A model generated the notes under the pieces. That model was not told where the DNA came from and did not search any database. It was given only the letters and a program-made list of their open reading frames with translations. Shown here in pieces: positions 1,151-35,254 of a DNA stretch of 64,000 bases. A program made the translations under genes and the position numbers. The stretch spans positions 96,001-160,000 of the forward strand of contig JAXMNT010000005.1 in NCBI GenBank assembly GCA_034670305.1, in the 5' to 3' direction. Origin of the DNA: Deltaproteobacteria bacterium. GTDB taxonomy: Bacteria; Myxococcota_A; Polyangia; Polyangiales; Houyiibacteriaceae. How positions within the stretch are numbered: the stretch's first letter is position 1; each line of letters begins with the position of its first letter.

Positions 1151-1963
1151 ATGCCTGCTTCCCTTCCTGGCCTCCGCGACTGGCTTCGCCTCGTGCTCAT
1201 GTACCGAGGCGCGCACCCCGACACCCAAGCCATCCTGGATGTCATCGAGCGCTTGCTCGACGCGCCCTACCAGACCCACGCGCTGCTCTTCGGCGAACCC
1301 GGCACCGGCAAAGAAGGCCTCGCCCGCGCGCTGCACCAAGCGATGCACCCAGGCGGCGACGCACCCTTCGTGAAGATGCCCACCGGCGGACGCGATCCGG
1401 CGGTGCTCGCGCTGCATCTGTTCGGCACCAAGACCCGCCGCGGCGCCATCGCGCGCGCCGACGGAGGCACCCTCTTCTTGGATGAGATCGCGACCTTGCC
1501 GCGCGAGATCCAAGCGCGGCTCTCCCCGGTGCTGCGCGGCCGCTACCGCCGCAACGACGACGAAGAGCCGCAGCCCTGCAACGTCACGGTGATCGGCGCC
1601 ACCGACCACGATCTCAGCGCCTCGGTCGCCGCCGGCGAGTTCCGGCACGACTTCTACTTCCGCCTCTCCCGCATCGAGCTGACCATCCCGCCGCTCCGCG
1701 AGCGCGCCAGCGACGTGCCTCGGGCCGCGCTCTGGGCCGGCAACCGCCTGCTGCAACTCCACGGCGTGTCTCGCACGTTGACCACCACCACCGACGCCGA
1801 GGACAACGACCTCGTCCTCACCGACGACGCGATCGAAGCCCTCAAGAAGTACCCCTGGCCCGGCAACTTCCGCGAACTCGACCGGGTGATGGAACGCGCC
1901 ATCTTCCTCCTCTGCGACGGCCAAACCGTCACCGCCGAAGACCTGAAACAAGCGACCACCTAG
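1151..1963 (+). CDS. sigma54-activator-type AAA+ protein lacking GAFTGA and HTH
   Basis: GEPGTGKE, GGTLFLDEI, FRHDFYFRL and WPGNFREL motifs. ATG 1151 chosen because the track start at 1109 overlaps the divergent gene. Confidence 0.8.
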   Translation: MPASLPGLRDWLRLVLMYRGAHPDTQAILDVIERLLDAPYQTHALLFGEPGTGKEGLARALHQAMHPGGDAPFVKMPTGGRDPAVLALHLFGTKTRRGAIARADGGTLFLDEIATLPREIQARLSPVLRGRYRRNDDEEPQPCNVTVIGATDHDLSASVAAGEFRHDFYFRLSRIELTIPPLRERASDVPRAALWAGNRLLQLHGVSRTLTTTTDAEDNDLVLTDDAIEALKKYPWPGNFRELDRVMERAIFLLCDGQTVTAEDLKQATT

Positions 1964-2192: not shown

Positions 2193-3725
2193 TCAGAGCG
2201 CCAACTGCAACAGCGCGCGGACTCGGTGTTGGCCGTCTTCGATCGCGTCGCGCCAGAGGTAGCCGTAGTCGACCTGGAGTTTGTAGGCGCTGCGGCCGAA
2301 GTAGTAGTTCAGGCCCCCGCTGATCTCTTCGCGCGAGCCGAGCGAGGTCTCGGTGTCGTCGCCCCGGCCGCGCACTCGGCTGTAGCGGCCGGCGACTTCC
2401 AGCGGCAGGCGCGGCAAGAGGTAGCCGACCTGCAGGTGGGTGCCCCAGCCGTTGCGCGGGAGCTCCACCTCGATCGGGTTGCCCATCTCGTCGACTTCGT
2501 CGCCAGGGTTGCGGGTGCCGTCGCGGTAGCCCGCTTCGAAGAGCACCGACGCGCCGCGCGCGAAGAAGAGGGCGTCCGCGTAGAAGACGTGCATGTCGGT
2601 GGTGCCGCCGTCCTCTGGCGCACTGCCGAGGATGCCGCGGTTGCCGCGCGCGCGGTCCACGTACGCGTAGCCGGCGGCGAGGGCGAGCCGCGGTGCGCCG
2701 CGTTCGAAGTCGGCTTCGCCGGAGTCGTCGTCGAAGGTGCCGAACGGATGCACTTCGATCCGCGCGGTGTAGAGCAGACCGAAGTCGTCGAAGCCCTGGG
2801 AGTCGCGACCGCGTCCGATGAACGCGCCGAGCCGGTAGCGCAGCATGTCGATGCCGAAGAGATCGTCGCTCGACAGATCGAAGCCGACGTCGCGGTCGAG
2901 GTTGAACTCCGAGTTGAAGATCGACCGATCGACCAGCTGCATGTCGGCCGAGGACGTCACCCGCTGGCGGTTGGATGGCACCTTCATCTGGCCGAAGCGG
3001 ACTCGGAAATCCCGCAGGTGGTAGATGCCGATGTACGCGTCGAGCAGCGGGGTGAAGCGCGGGCCTCCGTCGAGCAGATCGTCGCCGACGCCGCCGTCGT
3101 TCGGTGAGAACGCGAGCTCGAGTTTGTACCGAACGTTCGGCCCGAACGCGTGCCCACCCATCTTGAGCCGCGCCCGCCGAATCCGAAACCGGTTCTGCCA
3201 ACCGTCGTCGTTCGACTGCGCCGTCCACTCGGCCTGCACCCGCACCTGCATCGTGAGCGCGAAGTCCCCGTCGACGCTGCGGATCCGGATCCCCGACCCC
3301 GGCCGGTACACGAACTGGTCGATGCTGATCGGCCGGTCCTCCTGCTGCGCCGCATCGCCCGGCGGCAAGAGCGGGTTCACGCCATCGGCGTCAGAGTCGG
3401 TGTCGGTGTCGGCATCGGCGTCGGCTTCGGCATCGGCGTCGGCTTCGGCTTCGGCTTCGGCTTCGGCTTCGGCGTCGGCTTCGGCCTCCGCGTCGGCTTC
3501 GGCATCGGCGTCCGCTTCGGCTTCGGCGTCGGCTTCGGCTTCGGCATCGGCGTCGGCTTCGGCTTCGGCGTCGGTTTCGGCTTCGGCTTCCGCGTCGGTT
3601 TCGGCGACAGCTTCCGCGTCAGCATCCGCGTCCGCCACCACTTCCGCATCCTGCGCGCGCACCGGCGCGGCGCACCACGCGCCCACCCAGGCAAGCGAGA
3701 CGAGCAACGCGATCGATTGGGTCAT
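2193..3725 (-). CDS. phosphate-selective porin OprO/OprP family
   Basis: Signal peptide, [21 protein letters not shown] motifs, barrel-like C-terminus; acidic AE/AD tract after the signal peptide. Confidence 0.8.
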
Positions 3726-5009: not shown

Positions 5010-5993
5010 GTGAGCGTGGAGACGACGTCCCAGGACCGCGCCGAGGACCGCAAGTGCGTCCTCGAGGTGGAAGGCCTGAAGAAGACGTTCCGCATCGGGT
5101 TCTTCCGCAAGAAGGTCGAAGCGGTCCGCGGGGTCGACTTCCGGGTGCGCGAAGGCGAGATCTTCGGCCTGCTCGGACCGAACGGCGCCGGCAAGACGAC
5201 CACCATCAAGTGCCTTTTGCGCCTCGTCTTTCCGACCGAAGGCAGCGTGAAGATCTTCGGCCTCTCGCCCGACCGGCGCGAGTCGATGTTCCGGGTCGGC
5301 TACATGCCGGAGAACCCGTACATCTATCAGTACCTTAAGCCAGAAGAGTTCCTGGATCTGTGTGGCCGCCTCGTCGGCATGACGTCGACCGAACGCAAGA
5401 AACGTTCGGATCAGCTGCTCTCCCAAGTCGGCCTCGACCACGCGCGCGGTCGGCCGATCGGTAAGTTCTCGAAGGGCATGATGCAGCGGGTCGGGCTCGC
5501 CCAAGCGCTCTTGCACGATCCAGAAGTGCTGGTCCTCGACGAGCCGATGAGCGGGCTCGACCCGATCGGCCGCAAAGAGATCCGCGACTTGCTGCTCGAA
5601 GAGAAGAAGCGCGGCAAGACGCTCGTCTTCACCAGCCACATCCTCAGCGACGTCGAGATGCTCTGCGACCGGGTCGTGATTCTGCAGCGCGGCAAAGTCA
5701 CCGCCCGCGGCAAACTCAGCGAGCTCCTCTCCGCCGGCGACCCGCGCAGCGAGATCGAACTCGGCGCAGTCGGCGAGACCCTGCGCGCCGAGCTGCAAGA
5801 CGACACCGCGCTCGAAGTCGAAGCGACCGAAGCTCGGCTCATGGTCACCGCACCGGACAGCCGCGTCGCGTCGGTGCTCCAGGCAGCGCTCACTGCGGGC
5901 GCGCGCGTGGTCGCGGTGCGGCCGCAGCGGCAATCGCTGGAGAGTCTGTTCCTCCAAGGGGCCGAAGAGACGCCGGACCGCGAGTCGGAGTGA
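5010..5993 (+). CDS. ABC transporter ATP-binding protein
   Basis: GPNGAGKTT, FSKGMMQR signature, LDEP, SH switch. Confidence 0.92.
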   Translation: MSVETTSQDRAEDRKCVLEVEGLKKTFRIGFFRKKVEAVRGVDFRVREGEIFGLLGPNGAGKTTTIKCLLRLVFPTEGSVKIFGLSPDRRESMFRVGYMPENPYIYQYLKPEEFLDLCGRLVGMTSTERKKRSDQLLSQVGLDHARGRPIGKFSKGMMQRVGLAQALLHDPEVLVLDEPMSGLDPIGRKEIRDLLLEEKKRGKTLVFTSHILSDVEMLCDRVVILQRGKVTARGKLSELLSAGDPRSEIELGAVGETLRAELQDDTALEVEATEARLMVTAPDSRVASVLQAALTAGARVVAVRPQRQSLESLFLQGAEETPDRESE

Positions 5994-12052: not shown

Positions 12053-12099
12053 CACGCACCACGGCTTGACGGCGCGGTTGGCGTGGCGCACTTTCCTCT

Positions 12100-12248
12100 C
12101 GCGTATCGAGTCTCCTACGGGAGACCGGCCTCGGGAGAGACAACCTGAGGTCGAACGGGGAAGCCGGTGAAAGACCGGCGCGGACCCGCCACGGTAAGTG
12201 GACCTCCTCATGGAGGTTCCACGAGCCCGACACCCACTCGAAAGCGCG
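12100..12248 (+). promoter_or_regulatory. cobalamin riboswitch
   Basis: GGGAAgccGGTGaaagaCCGGcgcggacCCGCCACgGTAA core, B12-box-like GAGCCCGACACC, closing TCGAGT/ACTCGA helix. Downstream of TTGACG-N17-CACTTT and upstream of a TonB-dependent receptor. Confidence 0.85.
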
Positions 12249-12335
12249 CTCCCTCACACGCCTCGGGGATGGCGATCGGGACCGTCGGTCTCATGAGCCG
12301 AGTGCGGTCCGGGTCCTCGAGTCGGGACCCGATCG

Positions 12336-19808: not shown

Positions 19809-20510
19809 GTGCCAGCCATGATCCCCCAGCCACACAGTCCCGCAACCATTGAAGAATTCGCCGAATCTGCCGGATCGGACAATTCCCTCAGCTGCGCTCC
19901 CGCAGCGCGATTGTCGGAGATCCGGGGCGGCCAGGGGCGCACCACGCTGGCCGCGCTCGAGATCTTGGCCGCCCAAACGCGAGGTGAACCGGTCGCATGG
20001 ATCCAGCCCCGGGCTTCCACTTCCCTCTACCCGCCGGACCTCGCGGCCATGGGCATCGATCTCGACACCCTCGTGGTGGTGAACGTGCCGCCCAAAGCCC
20101 TCGAGGTGCTGGCCGCGTCGGAGGTGCTGCTCCGATCCGGCGGCTTCGGACTGGTGGTCGCGGACCTGACCGGCAGCGGTTCCACCATCGCAACCCGCGC
20201 CACCTCTCGACTGGCCCGGCTGGCCCGTCAACACAGCGCACGCCTCTTGCTCCTGACCGAAGAGGGCGTGGGCGAAGTCGGACCGCTGGTCAGCCTCCGG
20301 GTGCGGCCAGCGCTCGAACGACAGGGAGACGACTTCCGTCTCCACGTCGAGATCGAACGCGACAAGACCACCGAAGCGGGCGGCAGCGCCGCGCCCGGGC
20401 GCGTGATGGTCCGTGGACCGGTCGGCGCGTCGGAAGCGGACCGCGTCACCACGAACCGAGACCGATCGAGCGGGACTTCGGTCGTGTCGATCCGCCGGAG
20501 GGTGGCATGA
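19809..20510 (+). CDS. imuA: ImuA/RecA-like mutasome accessory protein
   Basis: RLSEIRG, degenerate Walker A, LYPPDLAAMGIDLDTL, LLRSGGFGLVVAD; precedes imuB-dnaE2. Confidence 0.8.
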   Translation: MPAMIPQPHSPATIEEFAESAGSDNSLSCAPAARLSEIRGGQGRTTLAALEILAAQTRGEPVAWIQPRASTSLYPPDLAAMGIDLDTLVVVNVPPKALEVLAASEVLLRSGGFGLVVADLTGSGSTIATRATSRLARLARQHSARLLLLTEEGVGEVGPLVSLRVRPALERQGDDFRLHVEIERDKTTEAGGSAAPGRVMVRGPVGASEADRVTTNRDRSSGTSVVSIRRRVA

Positions 20511-22738
20511 CCCAGCTCGCCATCGACGGACTCGAACCCGAACGCGATGCACGCGAAGAGGACGACGTGCCCTCCCGCGCGCAGCGGCGGCCCGAACACC
20601 GGCCCCCTCGGAGCAAACGCCGCAAGACCCGTCGCGCCCTGCGCCGCTCCGTGCTGCCGCCGAGCACGGACGAGAGCGCGACTGCGTCGGGAAGCACTGC
20701 GCCTTCGGGAAGCACTGCGCCTTCGGGAAGCACTGCGCCTTCGGGAAGCACTGCGCCTTCGGGAAGCACTGCGCCTTCGGGAAGCACTGCGCCTTCGGGA
20801 AGCACTGCGCCTTCGGGGGCGGCGGCCAGCGAACTTCCGGTGGGCGCCACGGCCGTGCTCCCCACGTTCCCTGCTCCGGAGCCCGCGCCCAAGCGGCGGG
20901 GCGTCTCGGTCGGGGACGATCCGGAGCTCGCGCACGCGGCGATCGTGATCGGCCAGCTCCCCGTGCAGCTCGTGCTTCGACGGGAACCTCGATGGCGCGG
21001 CACCCCGGTCGCGATCGTCGCGGGTGATGGACCCAACGCGTTGGTCACCCACCTGTCTCGGGAGGCACGCAAGCGAGGCCTGCGGGTCGGGTTGAGCCAA
21101 GGGGTCGCCCGCAACCTGGTGCCCGATCTTCGAACCCGCATCGTCACCGACGCAGAGCGCGACGCACTTCACCAGGACCTCGCCCGCGGTCTGCAGCTCT
21201 TCTCTCCGCGCGTGACGATCGAAGAACGTTTCGAAGGGTGTTTCACCGTCGACCCGACCGGGCTCGGTCCGCTCTTCGGCGGCATGGCCGCGTGGACGCG
21301 CGCGGTGCACGCGTACCTGAAAGGCCGCGGACTCTGGGCCGCCGTCGTGGTCGGCCGACACCGCTACCGCACGCTGGTCTCGGCGCTGTCGATGAACGGC
21401 CCCGCGGTGCTGAGCGCGGAAGACGAGTCCTCGAAGAGCGACGCGTGCACGCTGCGCGCGCTTGGGGTGCCGGAGAAGATCGCCGACCCCCTCGCGATGT
21501 TGAAGGTGCGCACCGTCGGCGCGCTGCGCGCACTCCCGGCGGGCGAACTCGAGACCCGGTTCGGAAGAGACATCCGCGCCCTGCAGGATCTCTTCGCCGA
21601 CCAGGGGCACCTTCCGATGCAGCCGCTCCGCCCCGAGGCACCGCGGCGCATCGAGCGAGAACTGCTGCCCCCGAGAACCACCCGCCATGCCGCGCTCGCG
21701 GATCTCTCCGCGTCGATCGACGAGCTCCTCGTGGATCTTCGTGGGCGCGGGGAAGTCGCCGAGGCGCTCACCTTCTCCCTTCAACTCGAGCGCCACGGAA
21801 CAGCCCGGCTGAGCGACTCCGAACGCCAGGTCGAAGCCCGCCTCGAACCGGCCGAACCCACCTGCGACCATGCGGTCTGGATGGAACTCGTCGGCCTGCG
21901 CTTCGACGAGATCCCCTTGCCCGCCGCGGTCCAGTCACTGGTCGTCGAAGCGGAGGTCCGGGCGCACCACGGCCAGCAGCTGCGGGTCCAGACCGAACCG
22001 GTTCCAAGACGCGACGCCCACGCCGCGGCCCGCGCGCTGGCCCGCCTGCGCGCCAGCTACGGCCCCTCCGCCGTCGCGCGTGCCGAGCTGCGCGACGCCC
22101 ACTTGCCGGAAGCGAAATTCGCGCTGGTCCCCTTCGAACCCGGCGCGCGCCTCGTGCGCAAGGCCGCACCGTCGCGGGCCAAGCCGGCGGTTCGGCACGC
22201 CAGCGCCTCCCCATCCGCACTGGCAGACGCGAAGGCGACACCGAGCGACGCGCCGAAGTCCGCCGGCGCCACGACCGAGCGCACCGTCATCGGAGGCGCG
22301 TCCGGCGCGCGCGCCGCGGGGTCGCTCGTCCTGCTCCGGTCCGACGCGCCCCGCTCCGACGCCATTCGGACCGACTCGGCCGACGCGGACGAAGACGCAC
22401 GCAGCGACGCAGCCGAGGACGGCGGCGACGACCTGGCGAGCCGGCGGGACGCCAGCGTGCCACTGCACGACCACGCACCGGACCGCCCGCGCCTGGCGCG
22501 CCGACTTCTCGCGCGTCCGCGTCGTTTGGGGGCGGGCCGCGAACCTGCGATCGGGGAGCGGGTGGTCGCGTTCTACGGACCGCACACGATCAGCGGGGGA
22601 TGGTGGGGCGCGCCGACGCCGAGCGGCGCGGTGCGCTCCACCGAACGCACGTACTTCTACGTCGAAGGAGAGAGCGGCCGGCTGCACTGGGTCTATCGAT
22701 CGCGCGGCGAGTGGTTCCTGCAGGGACACGTGGACTGA
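20507..22738 (+). CDS. imuB: ImuB, inactive Y-family polymerase
   Basis: ARKRGLRVG, FSPRV, C-terminal GPHTISGGWW...ERTYFYVE...WFLQGHVD; ATGA overlap with imuA. Confidence 0.82.
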   Translation: MTQLAIDGLEPERDAREEDDVPSRAQRRPEHRPPRSKRRKTRRALRRSVLPPSTDESATASGSTAPSGSTAPSGSTAPSGSTAPSGSTAPSGSTAPSGSTAPSGAAASELPVGATAVLPTFPAPEPAPKRRGVSVGDDPELAHAAIVIGQLPVQLVLRREPRWRGTPVAIVAGDGPNALVTHLSREARKRGLRVGLSQGVARNLVPDLRTRIVTDAERDALHQDLARGLQLFSPRVTIEERFEGCFTVDPTGLGPLFGGMAAWTRAVHAYLKGRGLWAAVVVGRHRYRTLVSALSMNGPAVLSAEDESSKSDACTLRALGVPEKIADPLAMLKVRTVGALRALPAGELETRFGRDIRALQDLFADQGHLPMQPLRPEAPRRIERELLPPRTTRHAALADLSASIDELLVDLRGRGEVAEALTFSLQLERHGTARLSDSERQVEARLEPAEPTCDHAVWMELVGLRFDEIPLPAAVQSLVVEAEVRAHHGQQLRVQTEPVPRRDAHAAARALARLRASYGPSAVARAELRDAHLPEAKFALVPFEPGARLVRKAAPSRAKPAVRHASASPSALADAKATPSDAPKSAGATTERTVIGGASGARAAGSLVLLRSDAPRSDAIRTDSADADEDARSDAAEDGGDDLASRRDASVPLHDHAPDRPRLARRLLARPRRLGAGREPAIGERVVAFYGPHTISGGWWGAPTPSGAVRSTERTYFYVEGESGRLHWVYRSRGEWFLQGHVD
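20687..20817 (+). repeat. perfect 18-bp tandem repeat x7 encoding (SGSTAP)7
   Basis: TCGGGAAGCACTGCGCCT repeated 7 times. Confidence 0.95.
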
Positions 22739-22747
22739 TCTCTCCGC

Positions 22748-25700
22748 ATGGCTGCGCCGCCGTACGTTCCGCTGTGGACCAAGAGCCACCACAGCTTTCT
22801 CGAAGGGGCCAGCAGTCCGGAGGAACTGATCGACACCGCCGGGGACCTCGGACTGCCGGCGATCGCCCTGACCGACCGCAACGGTGTGTACGGCGTGGTC
22901 CGCGCCCACGAGCGCGCCCGTTCGCGAGACGACGTGCGCGCGATCTTCGGCGTCGAACTCCGGATCGACGACGAGGAGGGCTCCCACGGTGCGCGTGAAC
23001 TCCAGCGCGGCAAGACCAGCGCCCGGTCGGCCGCGGTCGGTGGCAGGTGCGGTGGCACGCGCGGTGGCACGCGCAGTGGCAGTCGCGGTGCCACGCCCAG
23101 CAACGCAGGCAGCGCCGCCGGTGGCACCCGGAGCGCCATCGATGGCCAGCGCGTTGGCGAGGGTACAACGAGCGGATCGAGTCGCTCGGCACCGCGACGA
23201 GTCGGAGGCGCGCCGGCGGGCCGGGTCGTGCTCTTGCCGGTGGACCGGCGCGGCTGGGCCAACCTCTGTCGGCTGACCACCCGCGCGCACACCCGCGGTG
23301 CCAAGGGCGACGCGTGGGCGACGTGCGAAGAACTCGCCGACCACGCCGAGCACCTCATCGCGCTGAGCGCCGACCTCTCGCTGCTCCCAGTCATCCGTGG
23401 CGCCTTCGATCGCCGCGGACACGCCTTCGTCGCGCGTCACCGCATCTCCGGAGAACGGGAGCGCGAACAGCAACTGCGCGCCGCAGCATGGCGCCTCGGC
23501 CTTGGCCTCGTCGGCGGCCAAGAGGTGCTCTACCACCACCCCGATCGGCGCCGGCTGCAGGACGCGGTCAACTGCATCCGCCACCACACCACGCTCCGCC
23601 ACGCCGGCTCGATCCTCAAACCCAACCACGACTTCGCGATCCGCAGCGCGCGGGCGATGCGCGCCCTCTTCCGCGACGACCCGGCGCTGCTCCACGCCAC
23701 CCTCGACATCGCGGCGGAGTGCACCTTCCGGCTCGAAGATCTCCGCTACCGCTACCCGGAGGAGTCGTTGCCCGACGGAGAGACGGAGCAGAGCTGGCTT
23801 CGCGTCCGCACCCTGCGCGGCGCCGAGAATCGGTACCCGGCCGGCGTGCCCGAAGGCGTGCGCACCCAGCTCGAACGCGAGCTCGGCGTCATCGAGCAGC
23901 TCGAATACGGCGGCTACTTCTTGACCATGGTGGAGATCGTCGACTTCTGCCGCGCCGAAGGGATCCTCTGCCAAGGCCGCGGCAGCGCCGCCAACAGCGC
24001 GGTGTGTTTCTGCCTCGGCATCACCGCCATCGATCCGGTGCGCATGGATCTGCTCTTCGAACGTTTCCTCAGCGTCGAACGCGCCGAACCACCCGACATC
24101 GATCTCGACATCGAACACGAGCGCCGCGAGGAGGTCATCCAGCACGTCTACGAACGCTATGGACGCCGCCGCGCCGCGATGGTCGCCAACTGCATCCGCT
24201 ACCGCGGCAAGTCCGCGGTGCGCGAGATGGGCAAAGCGCTCGGCATCCCGGAGACCGATCTGGACGCGGTCAGCAAACTCATGCCGCACTTCGGAGGCGA
24301 GATTCAGGACGCAGAGGAACTGGCCAAGGGCGCGGGGCTCGATCCGCACGCGCCCTCCACGTTTCATCTGTTGAAACTCGCCAGCGAACTCATCGACGCG
24401 CCGAGGCACCAGTCGATCCACCCCGGCGGCTTCTTGCTCGGCGACGTGCCGGTCGACGAACTCGTGCCGGTCGAACCCGCGACGATGGAAGGCCGCACGG
24501 TGATCCAGTGGGACAAGTACGACGTCGAGAACCTGGCGCTCTTCAAGGTCGACCTGCTCGGCCTCGGCGCGCTCACCTGCATCCGCAAGTCCTTCGAGCT
24601 GCTGCGCGAACACGAAGGGCTCGACCTCGGCATCGCCACCGTGCCGCCCGACGACAAAGCGACCTACGACATGGTCTCCCGCGGCGACACCGTGGGCGTC
24701 TTCCAAATCGAGAGCCGTGCCCAGATGGCGATGTTGCCGCGCCTCAAACCCCGCACGTTCTACGACCTCGTCATCGAAGTGGCGATCGTGCGGCCGGGCC
24801 CGATTCAAGGCGACATGGTGCACCCCTACCTGCGCCGCCGCGACGGACTCGAGACCGTCGAGTACCCGCATCCGAAACTCGAGCGTGTGCTCCAGAAGAC
24901 GCTCGGCGTGCCGATCTTCCAGGAGCAGGTGATGAAGGTCGCGGTCGCGGTCGCGGACTACACGCCGGGCGAAGCCGACCAACTGCGCCGCGACATGGCC
25001 GCCTGGCGAAGCTCCGGCAAGATCGAGCAGCACCACGAACGCATGACCGGCGCGATGGTGAACAACGGCATCCCCCTCGACTTCGCCGAGCGTGTCTTCT
25101 CGCAGATCCGCGGCTTCGGCGAATACGGCTTCCCCGAGAGCCACGCCGCGTCGTTTGCGCTGCTCGCCTACGTCACCTCGTGGCTGCGCTGCCACCACCC
25201 CGCCGCCTTCGCCTGCGCGCTCCTCAACAGCATGCCGATGGGCTTCTACAGCGCCGCCACCCTGGTCGAAGACGCGCGCCGCAACGGCGTCGACGTCCTC
25301 CCCATCGACGTCCTGAGCAGCACCTACGACCACTGCCTGGTCCGCGACGCACTCGACTCGGGCGTGGGGGCGGGAGCCGGAGGGGGCGCGGAAGCGGGAG
25401 CGGGAGCGGGAGCGGGAGCGGTGGCGGAAGCAGGGGCGGGAGCGGAAGCGGGAGCGGCTGCGGGATCGGACGCGGCTTCGGGGTCGGCTTCGGCTTCGGC
25501 TTCGGGGTCGGGATCGGCTTCGGCTTCGGGATCGGCTTCGGGCGCACCCGAGGGCACGGGCAAGGGCAAGGGCACGGGCAAGGGAGCGCCGCCTTTGGCG
25601 GCGCTGCGAATGGGCATGCGGCTCGTCAAAGGCCTCTCCGAGTCCGACGCCCACTCGATCGAAACCCTCCGCCGCTCCGGCCGGCTCACCTCGCTCGAAC

Positions 25701-26314
25701 GCCTCGTGCGCGAGACAACCCTCTCCGAACGCGCCCTCGTCTCTCTCGCCGAAGCCGGGGCGCTCGAACGACTCACCCGGAGCCGCCGCGATGCGCTCTG
25801 GCAGATCCGCGCTTTGACCCGCGCCCGCCAAGACGGCATCGCCGCCGCCGCGCCCCGCACCCAGCTCAGCTTCGACGCCCTGACGGAAGACGAAGCCGTG
25901 CTCTGGGACTACCGCGCGTCGAAACACAGCGCGCGCGGCCACCCGATCGCGCGCTTCCGATCGGAGCTCCATGCGCGCGGCATGCCGAGCGCCGTCGACC
26001 TCGAACGCAACCTGCACGGCGACGTCGTGAAGTACGTCGGGCTCGTCATCTGTCGGCAGCGGCCGATGACCGCGAGCGGTGTCACCTTCATGACGCTCGA
26101 AGACGAGACCGGCTTCGCCAACCTCGTCTTCTGGGCCCGTCAGTTCGAACAGGACAGCGTGCTCTTGAAGACCGCGGTGGTGCTCGGCGTCACCGCCGAG
26201 GTGCAGAAGGCCGACGGCGTCACCCACCTCATCGTGCAGCGCGCCTGGCGACCACCCCCCGAGCTGCAACCGAAGACTCAAGAGCTGAACCACCAGTCCC
26301 GCGACTTCCATTGA
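22748..26314 (+). CDS. dnaE2: error-prone DNA polymerase DnaE2 (ImuC)
   Basis: SFLEGASSPEE, GRGSAANS, PPDIDLD, YGFPESHAASFA, C-terminal SRDFH. Confidence 0.95.
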   Translation: MAAPPYVPLWTKSHHSFLEGASSPEELIDTAGDLGLPAIALTDRNGVYGVVRAHERARSRDDVRAIFGVELRIDDEEGSHGARELQRGKTSARSAAVGGRCGGTRGGTRSGSRGATPSNAGSAAGGTRSAIDGQRVGEGTTSGSSRSAPRRVGGAPAGRVVLLPVDRRGWANLCRLTTRAHTRGAKGDAWATCEELADHAEHLIALSADLSLLPVIRGAFDRRGHAFVARHRISGEREREQQLRAAAWRLGLGLVGGQEVLYHHPDRRRLQDAVNCIRHHTTLRHAGSILKPNHDFAIRSARAMRALFRDDPALLHATLDIAAECTFRLEDLRYRYPEESLPDGETEQSWLRVRTLRGAENRYPAGVPEGVRTQLERELGVIEQLEYGGYFLTMVEIVDFCRAEGILCQGRGSAANSAVCFCLGITAIDPVRMDLLFERFLSVERAEPPDIDLDIEHERREEVIQHVYERYGRRRAAMVANCIRYRGKSAVREMGKALGIPETDLDAVSKLMPHFGGEIQDAEELAKGAGLDPHAPSTFHLLKLASELIDAPRHQSIHPGGFLLGDVPVDELVPVEPATMEGRTVIQWDKYDVENLALFKVDLLGLGALTCIRKSFELLREHEGLDLGIATVPPDDKATYDMVSRGDTVGVFQIESRAQMAMLPRLKPRTFYDLVIEVAIVRPGPIQGDMVHPYLRRRDGLETVEYPHPKLERVLQKTLGVPIFQEQVMKVAVAVADYTPGEADQLRRDMAAWRSSGKIEQHHERMTGAMVNNGIPLDFAERVFSQIRGFGEYGFPESHAASFALLAYVTSWLRCHHPAAFACALLNSMPMGFYSAATLVEDARRNGVDVLPIDVLSSTYDHCLVRDALDSGVGAGAGGGAEAGAGAGAGAVAEAGAGAEAGAAAGSDAASGSASASASGSGSASASGSASGAPEGTGKGKGTGKGAPPLAALRMGMRLVKGLSESDAHSIETLRRSGRLTSLERLVRETTLSERALVSLAEAGALERLTRSRRDALWQIRALTRARQDGIAAAAPRTQLSFDALTEDEAVLWDYRASKHSARGHPIARFRSELHARGMPSAVDLERNLHGDVVKYVGLVICRQRPMTASGVTFMTLEDETGFANLVFWARQFEQDSVLLKTAVVLGVTAEVQKADGVTHLIVQRAWRPPPELQPKTQELNHQSRDFH

Positions 26315-26598
26315 TGCACGTGAGCCGCAGTCACCGTGACCTCAACAGCGTGTGCCGTGGCCGTGCCCGTGCCCGTGCCCGTGCCCGTGCCCGTGGCTTC
26401 CGAGGCTTCGGAGTCGCCACCCGCAGCCATCTTCGGATTGGGCTTCACGCTTCGGCGTCAAAGTGCGTCGGACACCACGCACACATGAACGACGCCGATC
26501 CGAAAAACTTCTCTCAATGTGCAGACGGGCGGTTGACGGACCGGAAGGGCGTACCCAATCTGCTGTCTCCCGCGGCGCAGAAAGAAAAGGGAACTTCC

Positions 26599-26799
26599 AT
26601 GATTCATTTGCGCTTCGAAGGACGCTCCTACGAGTTCACGCCCCTGCAGCTCGGTGTTCACGCCGGCAGCGACGCGCGGCACATCAAGGAGCGGATCGCT
26701 CAGTTCCTCGACGTCGGCACGGACCGGCTCCAGCCCTACGTCGTCGATCATTCCCCCACCGGACACGTCATCGTTCGTCCGGAAGCCGTCTACGGCTGA
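26599..26799 (+). CDS. small 66-aa putative ubiquitin-like (beta-grasp) protein ending in Gly
   Basis: MIHLRFEGRSYEF...IKERIAQFLDVGTDRL..YVVD...VIVRPEAVYG*; purine-rich RBS AAAAGGGAA; TTGACG -35-like element at ~26533. Confidence 0.75.
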   Translation: MIHLRFEGRSYEFTPLQLGVHAGSDARHIKERIAQFLDVGTDRLQPYVVDHSPTGHVIVRPEAVYG

Positions 26800-26840
26800 A
26801 GCCTCTCGACCGACGCTTCCCGTCTTGGCATCAAGAGTTC

Positions 26841-27011
26841 GGTTCTCGCGACCCTACGTAGAAAGCCTACATACCCATTTCAAACCTGAGGATGTCGGTG
26901 CAAGTCCGACCCGGCCCGCCGCGACGAACCGTCGCTTCTCCAATGGGTCGGTAGTTCAATAGATAGAACGCAGGAGAGTATCCAAAAGCTTTCGCGACTC
27001 GCGCGAGATCC
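26841..27011 (+). ncRNA. Y-RNA-like unit 1: circularly permuted tRNA-like domain (T arm, acceptor, D arm) closed by a conserved stem
   Basis: T arm GTCGG-TGCAAGT-CCGAC at 26894-26910; CCGGCCC 26911-17 pairs with the later GGGTCGG 26945-51; D arm GTTC/GAAC; CCTG/CAGG; outer GAAAGC/GCTTTC and CTCGCG/CGCGAG. Confidence 0.8.
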
Positions 27012-27053
27012 AATCCAACACTGTCCCAAGGGACCCCAACTTCGTCAGGCTAC

Positions 27054-27132
27054 GGTCTGGCACCGTCGGACGTGAGTCCGGCAAAGGGTTGGACGCAAGT
27101 CCAACCTAGACCAAGATGCAAAGCAGCTTGGT
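27054..27132 (+). ncRNA. structured element: 7-bp acceptor-like helix with two GNRA hairpins
   Basis: GGTCTGG/CTAGACC enclosing GTCGGAC-GTGA-GTCCGGC and GGTTGGAC-GCAA-GTCCAACC. Confidence 0.5.
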
Positions 27133-27135
27133 TAT

Positions 27136-27282
27136 GGCGTTGTAGCTCAGTGGTAGAGCTCCAAGTTTACACCGCTTTCGAAACTTACGCGCAGAGCAAT
27201 CAAGCGCGGCCTCATCGTGGAAGCGTACATACTGTTTGGCCTCATAAGCCGGATGTCATAGGTTCGAATCCTATCAACGCCA
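27136..27282 (+). ncRNA. Y-RNA-like unit 2: tRNA(CAT)-like cloverleaf interrupted by a 75-nt insert
   Basis: GGCGTTG/CAACGCC-A acceptor, GCTC-AGTGGTA-GAGC D arm, CC[insert 27163-27237]GGC-CTCATAA-GCCGG, ATAGG-TTCGAAT-CCTAT. Confidence 0.8.
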
Positions 27283-27312
27283 CCGACGAACAGATGTCTT
27301 CGACGTCTGACC

Positions 27313-27408
27313 TCGCGCCCACCACCTGTTCCTACACACTCTCTTTGCAACAGAAGTTCTGTCTTCGGGGAGCGATCCCCGTCGCAAACGAACAGGCGAC
27401 TTTCGCGA
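27313..27408 (+). ncRNA. Y-RNA-like unit 3 (degenerate body)
   Basis: TCGCG/CGCGA, CCTGTTC/GAACAGG, CTACACAC motif, internal GGGGA-GCGA-TCCCC hairpin. Confidence 0.65.
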
Positions 27409-27558
27409 ACACTCGTCACCAACGTTATTGCCCGTCTCTCGCGGGGTTTCTGTGGGCCCGGACGCCTTCGGCTTTCCGAACCCTCGAAAACGGCTCCGGA
27501 CCTGCTCGTCGCTTCGCTCCTGCGCGGGCCCAGAGCCTCCCGCGCGAAAGATCACGTT

Positions 27559-27678
27559 CCTCGTGCCCTCACCCTCGCGGCTTACACACTCGTCTAATGG
27601 CTAGACACCGGATTATGGATCCGGCCATGGTGGTTCGATTCCACCGTGTCCAAATCAGCCGAGAAACCTTGCACGAGG
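27559..27678 (+). ncRNA. Y-RNA-like unit 4: D/anticodon(ATG)/T arms with the acceptor replaced by the conserved stem
   Basis: GTCT/AGAC, CCGGA-TTATGGA-TCCGG, GGTGG-TTCGATT-CCACC; ACAC/GTGT, CGGCT/AGCCG, CCTCGTGC/GCACGAGG. Confidence 0.8.
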
Positions 27679-27690
27679 TTCACAACTTTC

Positions 27691-27820
27691 TTCCTCGTAC
27701 CCTCACAGGACCGGCTTACATACTAGCCTAATTGGTAAAGGCGACGGATTCTTAATCTGTAGATTGGGGGTTCGAGTCCCCCGTATACTCAAAACAGCCG
27801 ATCCAATCTTGTACGAGGAA
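27691..27820 (+). ncRNA. Y-RNA-like unit 5: D/anticodon(CTT)/T arms with the acceptor replaced by the conserved stem
   Basis: GCCT-AATTGGTAA-AGGC, ACGGA-TTCTTAA-TCTGT, GGGGG-TTCGAGT-CCCCC; ATAC/GTAT, CGGCT/AGCCG, TTCCTCGTAC/GTACGAGGAA. Confidence 0.82.
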
Positions 27821-27853
27821 ACTATTTTGTCGGCGCCATTCGGCGCCTTCTGC

Positions 27854-27889
27854 ACCTGACACCTCGACCTGCGGGTCGAGGTGTCGGGT
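27854..27889 (+). other. strong 16-bp hairpin after the RNA array
   Basis: ACCTGACACCTCGACC-TGCG-GGTCGAGGTGTCGGGT; no clear U tract. Confidence 0.55.
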
Positions 27890-27949
27890 CGCTTGGGTTT
27901 CGAAGCATCGGACACGTTCCGAAGCCGGTTCTCGGCATCGGAACGCGGA

Positions 27950-28080
27950 GTCGGTTTCCGGCTTCGGACTCGGCTTCGGCTTCGGCTTCGGCTTCGGATT
28001 CGGCTTCGGCTTCGGCTTCGGCTTCGGCTTCGGCTTCGGCTTCGTATTCGGCTTCGGTTTCGGCTTCGGTTTCGGTTTCC
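27950..28080. repeat. (GCTTCG)n hexamer tract
   Basis: Tandem hexamers. Confidence 0.85.
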
Positions 28081-28119
28081 GCCTCTGTTTCCGCGACCGC
28101 GACCGCTCTTGGGCGATGA

Positions 28120-29694
<1,575 letters not shown>

Positions 29695-29990: not shown

Positions 29991-30089
29991 GGAGGGACCA
30001 CACAGCGCTTCGAAGCAGCGCTTCGCGAACAGCCGCCGTTCCAAACCTTCGTGCGTGGTCCGCCACGCACACCACCTCAGGAGGTCGTC

Positions 30090-30911
30090 ATGACCCAGAC
30101 CCAGATGCACAACGCCTACCGCCTGGCCGCCGCCGCGGTCCGTCGCCGCTACCTCGAGCAGCGCCCCGCCACGCTTGACGCACTCGATGCGCTCGCGCGT
30201 GGACACGTCGGGGTGCTCAAGGGCACGTACGACTCCGTCGAGCACGTGCTCGAGGCGCTGGGTGTGCCGTTCGAGATGAACCCGAAGAAGCTGACGCCCA
30301 AGTCGGGCAAGAAGGTCGTCTTCGCGAACTGCGCGAGCGCCTACACGCCCGAGCTCGTGTCCGACATCGAACGGTCGGTGCGCGAAGGTGCGCTGCTCGT
30401 GAGCTCGGACTGGGCGCTCGGCCGGCTCATCCAGGTCGGTTTCCCCGGCACGATCCGCAAGGCGCCGAAGGGCTCCAAGGACGAGGTCGTGGGCGTCGAG
30501 CCCACGCTCGACGGCATCTGGTCGGAGATCGTCGTGCTTGGTGCCGACCCGCAGTGGTGGCTCGAAGGCGGCAGCGAAGCGATCGAGGTTCTCGACCACG
30601 AGCGCGTGCGCGTCGAAGCGTCCAGCCACGAGATGCTGTGCAGCTACGACGCGTCGCCGGTCGCGGCGAGCTTCGACTGGCACGCAGGCCGCGTGTTCCA
30701 CGTGGTCAGCCACTTCTGGCTCAAGCGCACCCGCGCCGCGACGCCGGCGACGGCGGCCGACTTCCTCCGGCGCGGCATGCGCCTGAGCGAAGAGGGCATC
30801 GAGAAGGTCTTCGCGACCTCCAAGGTGCCGAAGGACCAGATCGACTTCGCGTCGCTTCAGAGCGCCGCGACGTCGACCGAACTGGTCGCGCGCCTGGTCG
30901 CGGAGGCGTGA
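30090..30911 (+). CDS. hypothetical protein, probable class I glutamine amidotransferase-like fold
   Basis: [54 protein letters not shown] alpha/beta pattern. Confidence 0.65.
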
Positions 30912-30952
30912 TCGAGAGGGCGGCGCTCCCGAAGGGGGCGCCCGCCATCTCG

Positions 30953-31236
<284 letters not shown>

Positions 31237-31261
31237 GCCCATCACCGAAAGCCCATTCCCC

Positions 31262-32134
31262 ATGACCCACGTTCTCGATCTCATCGATCGGCTCGCCAAG
31301 CGCGAGGCCGAGTTCGCGCAGCGGCGGTTCCTCGCGCCGTGTGTGCCGGGGGCCAAGCTGCGTGTGCGCATCGATGGACTCGTGCACGAGGTTCGGCCGA
31401 ACCCGGCGGGCTTCGCGGGGTGGGGGGTGTTTCAGGCGATCGACGCGAAGCGCGCGCAGCTCGTGGCGCGTCCGGAAGCGTCGTCGATCGAGCGGTACCT
31501 CGGGGCGCTCGATCTCGTGCGCTTGCACCTCGTCTCGCAGGCGCGCGGTCGCGCGTGGTGGGCGGTGCCCGTCGGCGCGGAGGCGTTGCGGGTGCGGTAC
31601 GGATTGACGGCTCCGGTCGTCGTCCACCTCACGCGGGATGCCACCCAGTTCGAGACGGTGCAGGCACGCTTCGACGGCGCGAACTTCTGGTACGCCGGAC
31701 CGGAGTACCTCGCGGATCCGGTGCTCGCCGAGACCCTTCGCGACGCGCTTCAGACGTGGATCGAAGCGCCTCGGGCAGCGCATCTGACGCCGGAGCTCCT
31801 GCACGCCTACGCGCTCGCGTTTGGCATCCAGGCCGAGGCCCGGGCCAAGAAGCTCGCCGCAGAAGTCGCCGAACGTCGCAAGACGGTCGACGGCCGCATC
31901 GAGCACGCGCTGCACGTCGGTGGCGGCACGCTCATCGGGCACCGCGAGGCGCACGGTGCGCTTCAGGTGGAGTGGCGGGACCGCCACGGCCACCGCCACA
32001 TCAGCACGCTCCGCATGGAGCAGCTCGAGGTCTCCATGGCCGGCGCGGTCTGTCTGCAGGGCCGCGACTCGGACTTCGATCTCACCTCGCTGGTCGGCGT
32101 GCTCTCGCAGGCGCCCGACTACTTCTACGACTGA
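31262..32134 (+). CDS. hypothetical protein with putative E2-like C-terminal domain
   Basis: Clean ORF; C-terminal [19 protein letters not shown] (Cys264). Confidence 0.7.
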
Positions 32135-32287
32135 CCCCAAGCCGAGCGGCTGGAAACAACGCCAGCCGCTCGCTCCTTCTCTGCGCCGCACCCGTTCTCT
32201 GTGCCGCGCCCGTCTCTGTGCCGCGCTCGTTCAGGGCCGCGCCCGTCCTGGGCCGCGGCCCGACTGCGCTTACGAAAGCTCGATCCC

Positions 32288-32914
32288 ATGACCTTCCTCT
32301 TCCACGAAAAACTGTTCCGCGGTGCGGATGCGATGACGCGTCTCAAGGACGCGAAGGTCGGGATCTGCGGCGCCGGCGCACTCGGAAGCCACCTCGCGCT
32401 CGGGCTCGCCCGCACGGGCGTCGGCCACCTGCGCGTCATCGACCGCGACCGCGTCGAAGAGCGCAACCTCTCCACCCAGACGTGGTCCCGCGGCGACGTC
32501 GGGGGCCCGAAGGCGAAGTTGCTCGCGCACACGATCTTCCGCGCGGTCGGCACCCAGGTCGATGGCCGCATGAAGGAGCTCACCCGTTCCAACGGGCGCG
32601 CGCTGCTGCGTGGTCTCGACTTGGTGATCGACGTCTTCGACAACAGCGAAGCGCGGGCCGCGGTGCAGCTCGCCGCCGCAGAGCTTCGGATCCCCTGCCT
32701 CCACGCCGGCCTCGCGTCGGACTACGCGGAGTGCGTCTGGGACCCCCACTACACGGTTCCGTCAAACGCGAACGACGACGTCTGCGACTACCCGCTCGCC
32801 CGCAACCTCGCGGTCGTAGCGGCCGCGCTCGCGTCCGAGCTCGCCGTGCGCTTCCTCGCCACCGGCGAGAAGCGCGACCTCGCGCTGACGTTCGGCGACC
32901 TGCGGATCACCTGA
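32288..32914 (+). CDS. ThiF/E1-like adenylyltransferase
   Basis: [25 protein letters not shown]; candidate catalytic Cys166 in DDVCDYP; no CxxC zinc motifs. Confidence 0.9.
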
Positions 32915-33859: not shown

Positions 33860-35218
33860 TCAGAAGCCGAGCTTGCGCTCGATCGCTTCGACCGCGCGCT
33901 GGGTCTTCTCGTCTTCGCCTTCGAGCAGGCCGGTGATCTTGCGGACGGCGCTGATGACCGTCGTGTGGTCCTTGCCGCCGAAGCGTTCCCCAAGGGCCGG
34001 GTAACTCGTGCCGAGTCGCTCGCGGCACAGGTACATCGCGACCTGCCTCGGGTAGCTCACCGCGCGGTGCCGCTTCTTGCTCTTCAGATCGCTGAGCTTG
34101 ATCGCGAAGTACACACAGACCGCGCGCTGGATGTCTTCCACCGTGAGCGCCTGCTCCGGTTTCGGCATCGCGGCGCGCAGAGAGTCCTTGGTCAGATCGA
34201 TGTCGATCGGTCGGCCGAGCAGCTCCGCTTTCACGGCGAGTCGAAGGAGCGTGCCTTCGAGCTCACGCACGTTGCTCTTCACGACCTGCGCGATGAAGTG
34301 CGCCACCTCGTCGAGCAGCGGGATCTGTTCGGCTTCCGCCTTCTTGCGGAGGATCGCGATGCGGGTGTCGAGCTCGGGCGGCTGAATGTCCGCGACCATG
34401 CCCGACTGGAACCGGCTCACGAGCCGTTCTTCCATCTCGGCGATGCGCTGCGGGTACACGTCCGAGGTGACGACGATCTGCTTGTCCGAATGGTAGAGCG
34501 CGTTGAACGTGTGGAAGAACTCTTCCTGGGTCTGGTCACGTCCGGCGAGGAACTGGATGTCGTCCATCAGCAGCACGTCGCAGTTGTCGCGGTAGCGCGC
34601 GCGGAACTCGTCGATGCGGTGGTTCTGCAGCGACCAGATGAACTCGTTCGTGAACTTCTCGGCGCTCAGGTAGAGGATGGTCGCGTCGGGGTTGTCCGCC
34701 AGGATGCGGTGGCCCATCGCGTTCATCAGGTGGGTCTTGCCGAGACCGACGCCGCCGTAGATGAAGAGCGGGTTGTAGCGTTTGCCGGGGGCCGAACCGA
34801 CCGCGATGCTCGCCGCGTGGGCGAGCTGGTTCGACGGTCCGACCACGAAGCTGTCGAACTTGTACTTCGGCTGCAGATGCGCCTTGCGCACCGCGTTGCT
34901 CTTGCGCGGAATCGCACGCGCCTTGGGTTTCGGCGGCGGCGCGCTGGCCCGCTGCTTCTGAGGAACCTGCAGCGTGTCGTCGACCTGGAAGCTGAGCTTG
35001 GAAGGGGCGTCTTCGGTGCCTTGTTCGCCGAGCACCTCGAGGATCAGATCCTGGTAATGGTTCTGGATCCAGTCCGCGTAGAAACGATTGGGAATGCGAA
35101 GCACGAGCGCCTCGCCTTCCAGACCCTCGCAACGAACCGGCCCAAGCCACGTCGCGAAGTTCTCGGCCGAAAGACGCCCACGAAGCGTTTCCAGCGTACG
35201 TTCCCACAGGTCGTTCAT
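33860..35218 (-). CDS. dnaA: chromosomal replication initiator DnaA
   Basis: [51 protein letters not shown]; start at ATG 35218 or GTG 35239. Confidence 0.98.
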
Positions 35219-35254
35219 CGAAGATTCCTCAGTGATCACAGCGCACTACGGCAT

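Follow-up and report, generated by a model that had tools for sequence, protein, structure and literature searches.

The window analyzed here is a stretch of 64,000 nucleotides (nt) from the genome of a Deltaproteobacteria bacterium (GTDB lineage Myxococcota_A; Polyangia; Polyangiales; Houyiibacteriaceae), which comprises positions 96,001 to 160,000 of the forward strand of contig JAXMNT010000005.1 in GenBank assembly GCA_034670305.1. The window has a G+C content of ~68%, and the genome to which it belongs measures 7.9 Mb and is 96% complete. Between a small open reading frame (ORF) and a gene for a protein predicted to adopt the Ro60 fold lies a 1.4-kb non-coding gap, and this gap is filled on the plus strand by an array of at least five RNA modules that carry the same stem, hereafter called the handle. 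Two neighboring modules, unit 1 and unit 2, consist of the same parts in two orders. Unit 1 has an open handle and, in its portion resembling transfer RNA (tRNA), a sealed acceptor stem, and unit 2 has the reverse. The genes, the modules, and their parts are listed in Table 1.

Two neighboring RNAs with the same parts in two orders

Unit 1 is best viewed in comparison with YrlA (Rfam RF02553), the tRNA-like Y RNA of Salmonella Typhimurium, Mycobacterium smegmatis, and many other bacteria and phages (PMC4201824; 10.1101/312249). An RNA of this type forms its handle from its own 5′ and 3′ ends, and its head consists of a T arm, a sealed acceptor, and a D arm. Unit 1 is organized in precisely this manner, and the YrlA model aligns end to end with its positions 26856 to 27000 (28.2 bits, with an E value of 0.0019 in a 2-kb search). 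The same model gives no match to unit 2, which combines a closed handle hairpin with an open acceptor. An initial annotation of this DNA had proposed a YrlA-like order of parts for unit 1, and this proposal is borne out by the full-model alignment and by the complete pairing of the two acceptor strands. The coordinates that it gave for both units are exact.

Unit 2 had been described as an RNA with normal tRNA ends that also includes the handle stem, now closed by a loop. This description agrees with the match to the Rfam tRNA model (RF00005), which spans positions 27136 to 27282 with a score of 50.6 bits (cut-off 29) and a 66-nt insert. It also agrees with the structure predicted by RNAfold, in which an acceptor, a D arm, the inserted stem, an anticodon hairpin, and a T arm are formed, and with the conservation of these features in relatives, as detailed below. 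The anticodon is CAU (27243 to 27245). ARAGORN reports only positions 27208 to 27284 of this RNA, miscalled as a distorted tRNA-Met. Omitting positions 27163 to 27237 leaves a 72-nt cloverleaf, as the initial annotation maintained; the length is computed, and the cloverleaf itself is taken from the Rfam tRNA match and the RNAfold prediction for intact unit 2.

The further claim that the two RNAs are permutations of one topology stands only in part. The same parts do occur in two orders, but an additional anticodon hairpin is present exclusively in unit 2. Unit 1 is formed without a separate anticodon hairpin, and its 4-bp CAGG/CCUG stem continues directly as the handle. An anticodon hairpin is present in YrlA-type units of other loci, such as those designated L081, L032, and L041.

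Table 1. Coordinates of the RNA modules, their parts, and the surrounding genes in the window
Feature	Positions	Strand	Description or basis
imuB-like gene and dnaE2 (22748-26314)	19997-26314		Upstream of array
Small ORF, 66 amino acids	26599-26796 (stop to 26799)	+	Opens the locus; tblastn, AlphaFold
Unit 1, YrlA-type Y RNA	26841-27011	+	Ends in handle; order T arm, closed acceptor, D arm; RF02553 and predicted fold
Unit 1 handle 5′ strand	26841-26874	+	Read from sequence
Unit 1 T arm	26894-26910	+	
Unit 1 acceptor 3′ strand	26911-26917	+	
Unit 1 linker hairpin	26918-26944	+	
Unit 1 acceptor 5′ strand	26945-26951	+	7/7 pairs with acceptor 3′ strand
Unit 1 D arm	26954-26969	+	
Unit 1 handle 3′ strand	26985-27011	+	
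Spacer	27012-27135	+	Four hairpins, no handle motif; RNAfold z score -4.46
Unit 2, tRNA-shaped RNA	27136-27282	+	Open 7-bp acceptor stem; anticodon loop CUCAUAA; A73 followed by CC
Handle hairpin inside unit 2	27163-27237	+	In 5′ strand of anticodon stem
Unit 2 handle 3′-type strand	27174-27192	+	
Unit 2 handle loop	27193-27203	+	
Unit 2 handle 5′-type strand	27204-27232	+	Ends in UACAUAC
Unit 3	27302-27417	+	Handle and two small hairpins, no tRNA-like head; handle motifs; fold z score -2.53
Unit 4, Yrn1-type	27559-27678	+	Handle, D arm, anticodon arm, T arm, handle; fold z score -3.53
Unit 5, Yrn1-type	27691-27820	+	Order as in unit 4; fold z score -4.35
Ro60-fold protein P0001, 487 amino acids	28231-29694	+	Helical-repeat ring and vWA domain; AlphaFold and Foldseek
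Downstream genes	30051-32914	+	Proteins of 286 and 290 amino acids (no known family) and ThiF/E1-like adenylyltransferase; frames by G+C content at third codon positions
ThiF/E1-like adenylyltransferase	32201-32914	+	Pfam ThiF, E value 3e-29

Conservation and covariation of unit-2-type RNAs

The wiring of unit 2 recurs in seven copies at six Myxococcota loci, which represent four genera and include the window itself, a syntenic locus called G004 (also L029) with two copies, and the loci L027, L028, L030, and L031. Six of the seven copies are 142 to 147 nt in length, and the copy from L031 carries a long extra insert in its variable arm. The acceptor stem pairs 7/7 in the open register in all seven, compared to at most 5/7 for any flanking partner that could seal it. 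RNAalifold analysis of six copies yields an acceptor, a D arm, two handle helices, an anticodon hairpin, and a T arm, with changes on both sides at 12 of the 31 pairs.

For the covariation test, the wobble-closed anticodon stem of this consensus was first replaced with a split stem, in which bases 27 and 28 are supplied from upstream of the insert. Among the six orthologous copies, 97.8% of the cells of this split-stem structure pair, versus 33 to 41% with slid partners, and both sides change at 12 of 30 pairs. This degree of covariation was reached in 0 of 500 shuffles. Pair 27:43 is C-G in four rows of the six-row alignment, G-C in one, and unpaired in one due to a 1-nt alignment shift; when read directly in all seven copies, it is C-G in five and G-C in two. 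Because the split stem pairs and its 27:43 pair covaries, we conclude that the handle branches from the 5′ strand of the anticodon stem, as had been read from the window alone.

The tRNA core is likewise preserved. U8, A14, the GG of the D loop, and the T loop are intact, and the Levitt pair 15:48 can be formed in all seven copies (G:C in two, A:U in five). All seven also carry CC after N73, and two of them CCA, as read by eye rather than by script; for comparison, CC follows N73 in 62 of the 86 ordinary tRNA genes of the host. The anticodons differ among orthologous loci (CAU, GUU, and UCC), and U33 is present throughout.

A covariance model called R1 was built from six of these RNAs. The training copies score 128 to 145 bits and the L031 copy scores 75.7 bits. 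When applied to the genome that contains the window, R1 recovers only unit 2 (128.5 bits), and the 31 other matches, at 29 to 60 bits, are tRNAs of ordinary length or tRNA-shaped heads. A DNA search of the BLAST type against 61 relatives gave mostly T-arm matches, and G004 was its sole usable lead.

Among 150 related genomes, seven carry the Ro60-like gene. Unit-2-type RNAs are found in six of these seven and in none of the 143 genomes without the gene. The Ro60-like gene is also present, with 43 to 46% identity, on six viral contigs; homologs of the small ORF accompany it on five of the six, of the 290-amino-acid gene on two, and of the E1-like gene on one. The top R1 matches on these viral contigs have 7/7 open acceptors and sealed handles in 11 of 11 cases, most of them with a reduced D arm. 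Long R1 matches were also obtained among the 74 loci from cyanobacteria and other organisms outside Myxococcota, and these were rejected as candidates because they straddle adjacent YrlA-type units, with the back half of one joined to the front half of the following one, or cover half a unit. A 7/7 acceptor in the open register is formed by none of 26 such look-alikes, and for 15 of them a 7/7 partner is located just upstream, as is the case for a sealed acceptor.

No part of the unit-2-type RNA is more strongly conserved than the handle. In an alignment of six Myxococcota and 11 viral copies, the handle hairpin aligns column for column. Its proximal helix is 84.8% paired compared to 26 to 53% with slid partners, and seven of nine pairs change on both sides. 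Matched changes are also evident in the distal helix (GGACG/CGUCC, AGACG/CGUCU, and GAACG/CGUUC). At the level of the gene, the unit-2-type RNAs thus appear as a conserved class with a conserved predicted fold and tRNA-like open ends.

An array of modules that share one handle

In the remainder of the array, unit 3 has no tRNA-like head, whereas units 4 and 5 carry heads in the order known from the Y RNA Yrn1. The distal helix of the handle is CGUGC/GCACG in unit 4 and CGUAC/GUACG in unit 5, and these sequences are compensatory relative to those of units 1 and 2. ARAGORN calls the head of unit 4 tRNA-His(atg) at 27582 to 27654 and that of unit 5 tRNA-Lys(ctt) at 27717 to 27790. Together with the call at 27208 to 27284, these predictions correspond to pieces of handle modules, and they would inflate counts of tRNA genes. 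Heads in related loci are called with odd anticodons as well (for example cta, tca, att, and aaa).

A consensus for the handle was derived from the syntenic G004 locus and 80 further loci, and it is conserved across phyla. The 5′-type strand reads CGCGNCC, a short loop, GRAAGC, N, and UACAYAC, and the 3′-type strand reads GCUUY, a few bases, and GACUYGCGCG. When both strands of the entire 7.9-Mb genome are searched, the motif is encountered three times, and two of the three occurrences are at this locus. A simple parser identifies 232 handle modules in 71 loci. True partners in the distal handle pair at 4.61 of eight positions, versus 3.50 of eight for shuffled partners (maximum 3.73 in 200 shuffles). 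With strict detectors applied to all loci, the modules that carry both arms comprise 41 in Yrn1 order and 25 in YrlA order, in addition to 82 modules with a T arm only and 101 with neither arm. The two bases that follow the D arm in YrlA-type modules elsewhere give no signal of closing a split anticodon stem (6/13 versus 6/13 in a shifted control).

A scan of positions 26300 to 28400 for promoters and terminators gave nothing above shuffled sequences. A second hairpin-rich spacer without a handle motif lies at 27424 to 27551. A related metagenome DNA contig skips this spacer along with positions 27061 to 27105, which indicates that the spacers vary by deletion. Approximately 20 tandem copies of the hexamer CGGCTT occupy positions 27959 to 28079, past the end of unit 5 and ahead of the Ro60-like gene.

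Only four DNA sequencing runs contain the stretch, and these may be its source; a small share of it is present in one RNA run. A 151-nt contig from a salt-marsh metatranscriptome covers positions 27126 to 27276 with two differences, and it is colinear through the insert of unit 2 with no joint. Uncovered parts of the stretch, and the absence of a spliced form from the contigs, carry no weight.

A Ro60-fold protein and its conserved neighbors

The protein encoded downstream of the array, P0001, was modeled with AlphaFold on an alignment of 34 homologs (pLDDT of 86.3, pTM of 0.80). When this model is used as a Foldseek query, ranks 1 through 12 are all Ro60, Rsr, or TROVE chains matched over the full length of the model, with E values from 2e-12 to 2e-9, TM scores of 0.56 to 0.68, and sequence identities of 14 to 17%. 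These matches include frog and human Ro60, Deinococcus Rsr, and the Ro60 of a Thermus phage. Sequence searches with Pfam give P0001 a weak vWA match and no match to TROVE (PF05731). A profile of the family does rank TROVE proteins as the best sequences in the PDB, but with an E value of 0.023. P0001 is the only Ro60-like protein encoded in the genome, in which Pfam detects no TROVE protein at all. The units are located 0.4 to 1.4 kb upstream of the Ro60-fold gene on the same strand, which is the placement expected of YrlA genes.

The family to which P0001 belongs is large. At least 2336 proteins are recovered at an E value of 0.001 or below, with ~60% identity across cyanobacteria, Myxococcota, and Chthonomonadaceae. 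The gene occupies at least 586 places in species-representative genomes, mostly of cyanobacteria, where the products are named only as vWA or hypothetical proteins. Close relatives of P0001 are from metagenome-assembled genomes of Myxococcota and Polyangiales. Judged by their record titles, the carriers of unit-2-type RNAs identified here are all metagenome-assembled genomes or viral contigs and include no isolate; isolates are represented among the cyanobacterial members of the family.

By tblastn, 54 of 82 rows contain the small ORF that opens the locus, in each case upstream and in the same orientation. Its C-terminal glycine (G66) is invariant in the alignment, and the AlphaFold model (pLDDT of 88.5) presents the beta-beta-alpha-beta-beta order of a beta-grasp protein. 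The top Foldseek matches of this model are ubiquitin, NEDD8, and ISG15, all with E values of 0.5 or greater, and the ORF matches no Pfam family. Among the same 82 rows, the window's own included, the 286-amino-acid, 290-amino-acid, and E1-like genes lie downstream on the same strand in 20, 29, and 19, respectively. When the genes of the locus other than the small ORF were scanned, PADLOC identified only the E1-like gene, through E1-E2 models of the cyclic-oligonucleotide-based antiphage signaling system (CBASS), and NCBIfam gave no gene above its cut-off. The ESM Atlas offered no usable match for the 290-amino-acid protein. The pairing of a beta-grasp protein with an E1-like enzyme suggests a ubiquitin-like conjugation step that is tied to the RNA system.

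Other elements that recall the translation machinery were observed at related loci. A paralog of ribosomal protein L7/L12 is encoded inside a cyanobacterial RNA array (L046, positions 2809 to 3189; Pfam Ribosomal_L12 E value of 9e-19, N-terminal domain E value of 5e-10), and an ORF similar to it, as judged by eye in the sequence, is present near positions 1910 to 2160 of L057. Downstream of the Ro60-like gene of Moorena producens (L095, positions 5459 to 5541), an 83-nt segment matches the Rfam model for bacterial large-subunit ribosomal RNA (rRNA) above its cut-off (55 bits, model positions 1077 to 1160). This part of the model corresponds to the L11 and L7-L12 stalk region of 23S rRNA, and the segment may represent a module of the same system that mimics rRNA. 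At L064 (positions 2614 to 2697), an 84-nt segment upstream of the small ORF passes the Rfam cut-off for transfer-messenger RNA with 54 bits by matching only the two ends of the model, and it looks like a mimic that consists of the tRNA-like domain alone.

Elsewhere in the window, dnaA is located on the minus strand at 33860 to 35239, with an Rfam AsdA match inside it on the opposite strand (34679 to 34759), and a cobalamin riboswitch is predicted by Rfam at 12092 to 12255.

Possible function of the array and alternative explanations

We favor the view, with a probability of roughly 0.6, that the gap encodes a Y-RNA-like array whose members share one handle for a Ro60-like ring, and that unit 2 is a Y RNA with a head that is processed like a tRNA. 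By analogy with the stems of Y RNAs, the handle would dock on the Ro60-like ring. RNase P and the enzymes that mature tRNA 3′ ends would cut unit 2 from the array transcript while the handle is kept, and the product would then serve as a Y RNA. The handle is expected to emerge at the hinge where the D stem meets the anticodon stem, similar to a long variable arm but on the opposite strand. Because it would leave the L-shape at this hinge, the acceptor end, the anticodon loop, and the elbow should all stay accessible. The free tRNA end may be recognized by tRNA-binding factors, possibly with addition of CCA or charging, and the head may either recruit such factors to the particle or act as a tRNA-shaped bait. 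Decoding presumably does not depend on unit 2, since 86 other tRNA calls make up a full set in this genome, five of them for tRNA-Met.

Several points weigh against this interpretation. The RNA-library evidence consists of two 151-nt metatranscriptome contigs whose ends and strand are unreadable and which might reflect DNA carry-over. Unit 1 falls below the Rfam gathering score for YrlA (28.2 versus 69 bits), and no YrlA match above this cut-off is present in 17 related loci. The resemblance of P0001 to Ro60 is predicted from its modeled fold at 14 to 17% identity. When compared by eye with the published Rsr-binding motif GNCGAAN0-1G, the handle is a loose match, which is exact in one G004 copy and has one mismatch in units 1 and 2. 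The seventh genome with a Ro60-like gene has a short array that includes no unit-2-type RNA. Finally, another protein of the operon could be the partner of the handle.

This last point can be developed into an alternative that we consider unlikely, in which the RNAs are real but the handle docks on a different product of the operon (for which the E1-like enzyme, the beta-grasp protein, and both proteins without a known family are candidates) or functions as an element for processing or stability. Four other genes are conserved with the locus, and the looseness of the Rsr motif is in keeping with this idea. However, the layout is that of a Y RNA locus, given that the array is placed directly upstream of a Ro60-fold gene on the same strand and has heads of both the YrlA and the Yrn1 type (compare PMC4201824). 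Moreover, in the set of related genomes the unit-2 type is confined to those that carry the Ro60-like gene.

There is only a slim chance that unit 2 is instead a tRNA-Met gene with an intron-like element, such that the 75-nt hairpin is excised, perhaps in the form of a circle or a small Y RNA, and a ligase such as RtcB joins the two halves into a decoding tRNA. Circular or excised intermediates had been raised in the initial annotation as well. The 72-nt sequence that remains without the insert does read as a cloverleaf with a canonical CAU loop, the genome encodes an RtcB ligase elsewhere, and Wang et al. raise the processing of YrlA toward tRNA as a possibility (10.1101/312249). However, the tRNA-splicing endonuclease (PF01974) is not found in the 96%-complete genome by a search that detects it in 4 of 4 archaeal controls. 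The segment that would be discarded is the best-conserved part of the RNA, its handle is common to the other four modules of the array, and the RNA-library contig runs through it without a joint. The proposed excision is therefore unsupported. The assignment as tRNA-Met fares no better. There are five other tRNA-Met genes in this genome, the body of unit 2 is no closer to them (at most 75% identity) than to an Arg tRNA (81%), and the anticodon varies among orthologous loci. Judged from these identities, the body of unit 2 was not recently copied from a tRNA-Met gene of the host. An insert of 75 nt is also too small to be a group I or group II intron.

Least probable of all is that unit 2 has no function and arose as a side effect of unequal recombination in a tandem Y RNA array: such arrays can indeed be folded in two registers and their spacers vary by deletion in relatives, but seven copies from four genera retain their helices through compensatory changes together with an intact tertiary core and N73-CC, and the same wiring recurs in distant viral loci.

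Comparison with known Y RNAs and permuted tRNA genes

The locus resembles those of YrlA RNAs in that the units are located beside a Ro60-type gene on the same strand and combine a handle stem with a tRNA-like head that has T and D arms. The parts of unit 1 also follow the YrlA order, and the unit matches the YrlA model from end to end. In contrast, unit 2 has an open acceptor, a sealed handle, and a full anticodon hairpin. Further distinctions are that both units fall below the family cut-off and that the presumed partner protein here is not recognized as TROVE by Pfam.

The M. smegmatis YrlA RNA is cut by RNase P and given CCA (PMC4201824). As predicted for unit 2, the tRNA-like module of this processed RNA ends in a free acceptor stem, and the M. 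smegmatis RNA is bound by Ro60. However, cutting the loop of its sealed acceptor produces an RNA of two pieces with an open handle, whereas unit 2 is encoded as one piece with the handle sealed. By its predicted structure, unit 2 is closest to this RNase P-cut and CCA-tailed form of YrlA among the known RNAs.

In Yrn1 of Deinococcus radiodurans, as in units 4 and 5, the arms follow one another as D, anticodon-like, and T, and the handle is attached on the acceptor side. This orientation sets Yrn1 apart from YrlA, and the two orientations are treated as independent inventions of separate lineages (PMC4201824). Unlike in these systems, both orientations at the present locus share one handle and are accompanied by a third wiring. 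Because all three head wirings share a single handle in one locus, our observations argue against separate origins of YrlA and Yrn1.

A different parallel is offered by the permuted tRNA genes of red algae and an archaeon, in which the parts of a tRNA are likewise encoded in rotated order (as described via 10.1101/312249). The precursors of those tRNAs are re-joined by a splicing endonuclease and a ligase, whereas PF01974 was not found here and both wirings keep the extra handle.

On the basis of these comparisons, unit 1 reads as a divergent member of the YrlA kind and units 4 and 5 as Yrn1-like, while unit 2 passes the tRNA model but has no handle made from its own ends. No description of a Y RNA that combines open tRNA ends with a sealed handle was found in a full-text literature search that did not cover two key reviews and the supplement of Chen et al. 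2014. The wiring of unit 2 is apparently new; the view of YrlA as a permuted tRNA is already in print (10.1101/312249).

Possible interconversion of the two wirings

Two other loci illustrate how one wiring might be turned into the other. At L081, the acceptors and handles of two tandem YrlA-type units resemble each other in sequence, and a segment that begins halfway through the first unit and ends halfway through the second comes close to folding like a unit-2-type RNA. The acceptor formed across the two units has 5/7 pairs by eye and 3/7 in a computed window shifted by one base, compared to 7/7 within each unit. At G004 (L002, positions 1588 to 1709, minus strand), the YrlA model spans the junction of two tandem unit-2-type genes with a score of 35.1 bits, and in this match the spacer between the genes forms a sealed hairpin that resembles an acceptor. 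The two wirings can be interconverted by tandem duplication and a register shift.

A dimeric-tRNA model for the origin of Y RNAs is cited from Sim and Wolin 2018 by Wang et al., who also call YrlA a circularly permuted tRNA (10.1101/312249). The initial annotation had suggested that the two units might capture a moment in the derivation of Y RNAs from tRNA genes. This reading is plausible. It fits the dimeric-tRNA model, and the register geometry at L081 and G004 matches it. In a quick tree of the Ro60-like proteins, the viral carriers of unit-2-type RNAs are basal, the Myxococcota carriers form one clade (support of 100), and all 27 non-carriers form another (support of 93), but with an arbitrary midpoint root and carrier labels from our own searches, this tree cannot decide which wiring is ancestral.

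A bolder proposal, which we regard as doubtful, is that the unit-2-type RNAs are working, chargeable tRNA bodies equipped with a Ro60 handle and represent the unpermuted ancestors, as predicted by the dimeric-tRNA model, from which YrlA RNAs were produced by register shift in tandem pairs. The particle would then ride on the machinery for tRNA handling and translation or bait enzymes that attack tRNAs, within a conserved system that includes ubiquitin-like and E1-like proteins.

Implications for Y RNAs and Ro60-fold proteins

The Ro60-fold proteins described herein make up a large family that is missed by domain searches, and its members are encoded with RNA arrays and with ubiquitin-like and E1-like neighbors. 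Parts of these RNAs are mislabeled by annotation pipelines as tRNA-Met, tRNA-His(atg), and tRNA-Lys. Conservation of Y RNAs and Ro60 extends from bacteria to humans, and both the role and the origin of the tRNA-like head are at issue. The present locus holds a naturally unpermuted counterpart of YrlA, in which a Ro60-type handle and free tRNA ends are combined in one RNA. This counterpart makes the dimeric-tRNA model for the origin of Y RNAs testable, and it makes questions regarding the trimming, CCA-tailing, and charging of tRNA-like heads addressable.

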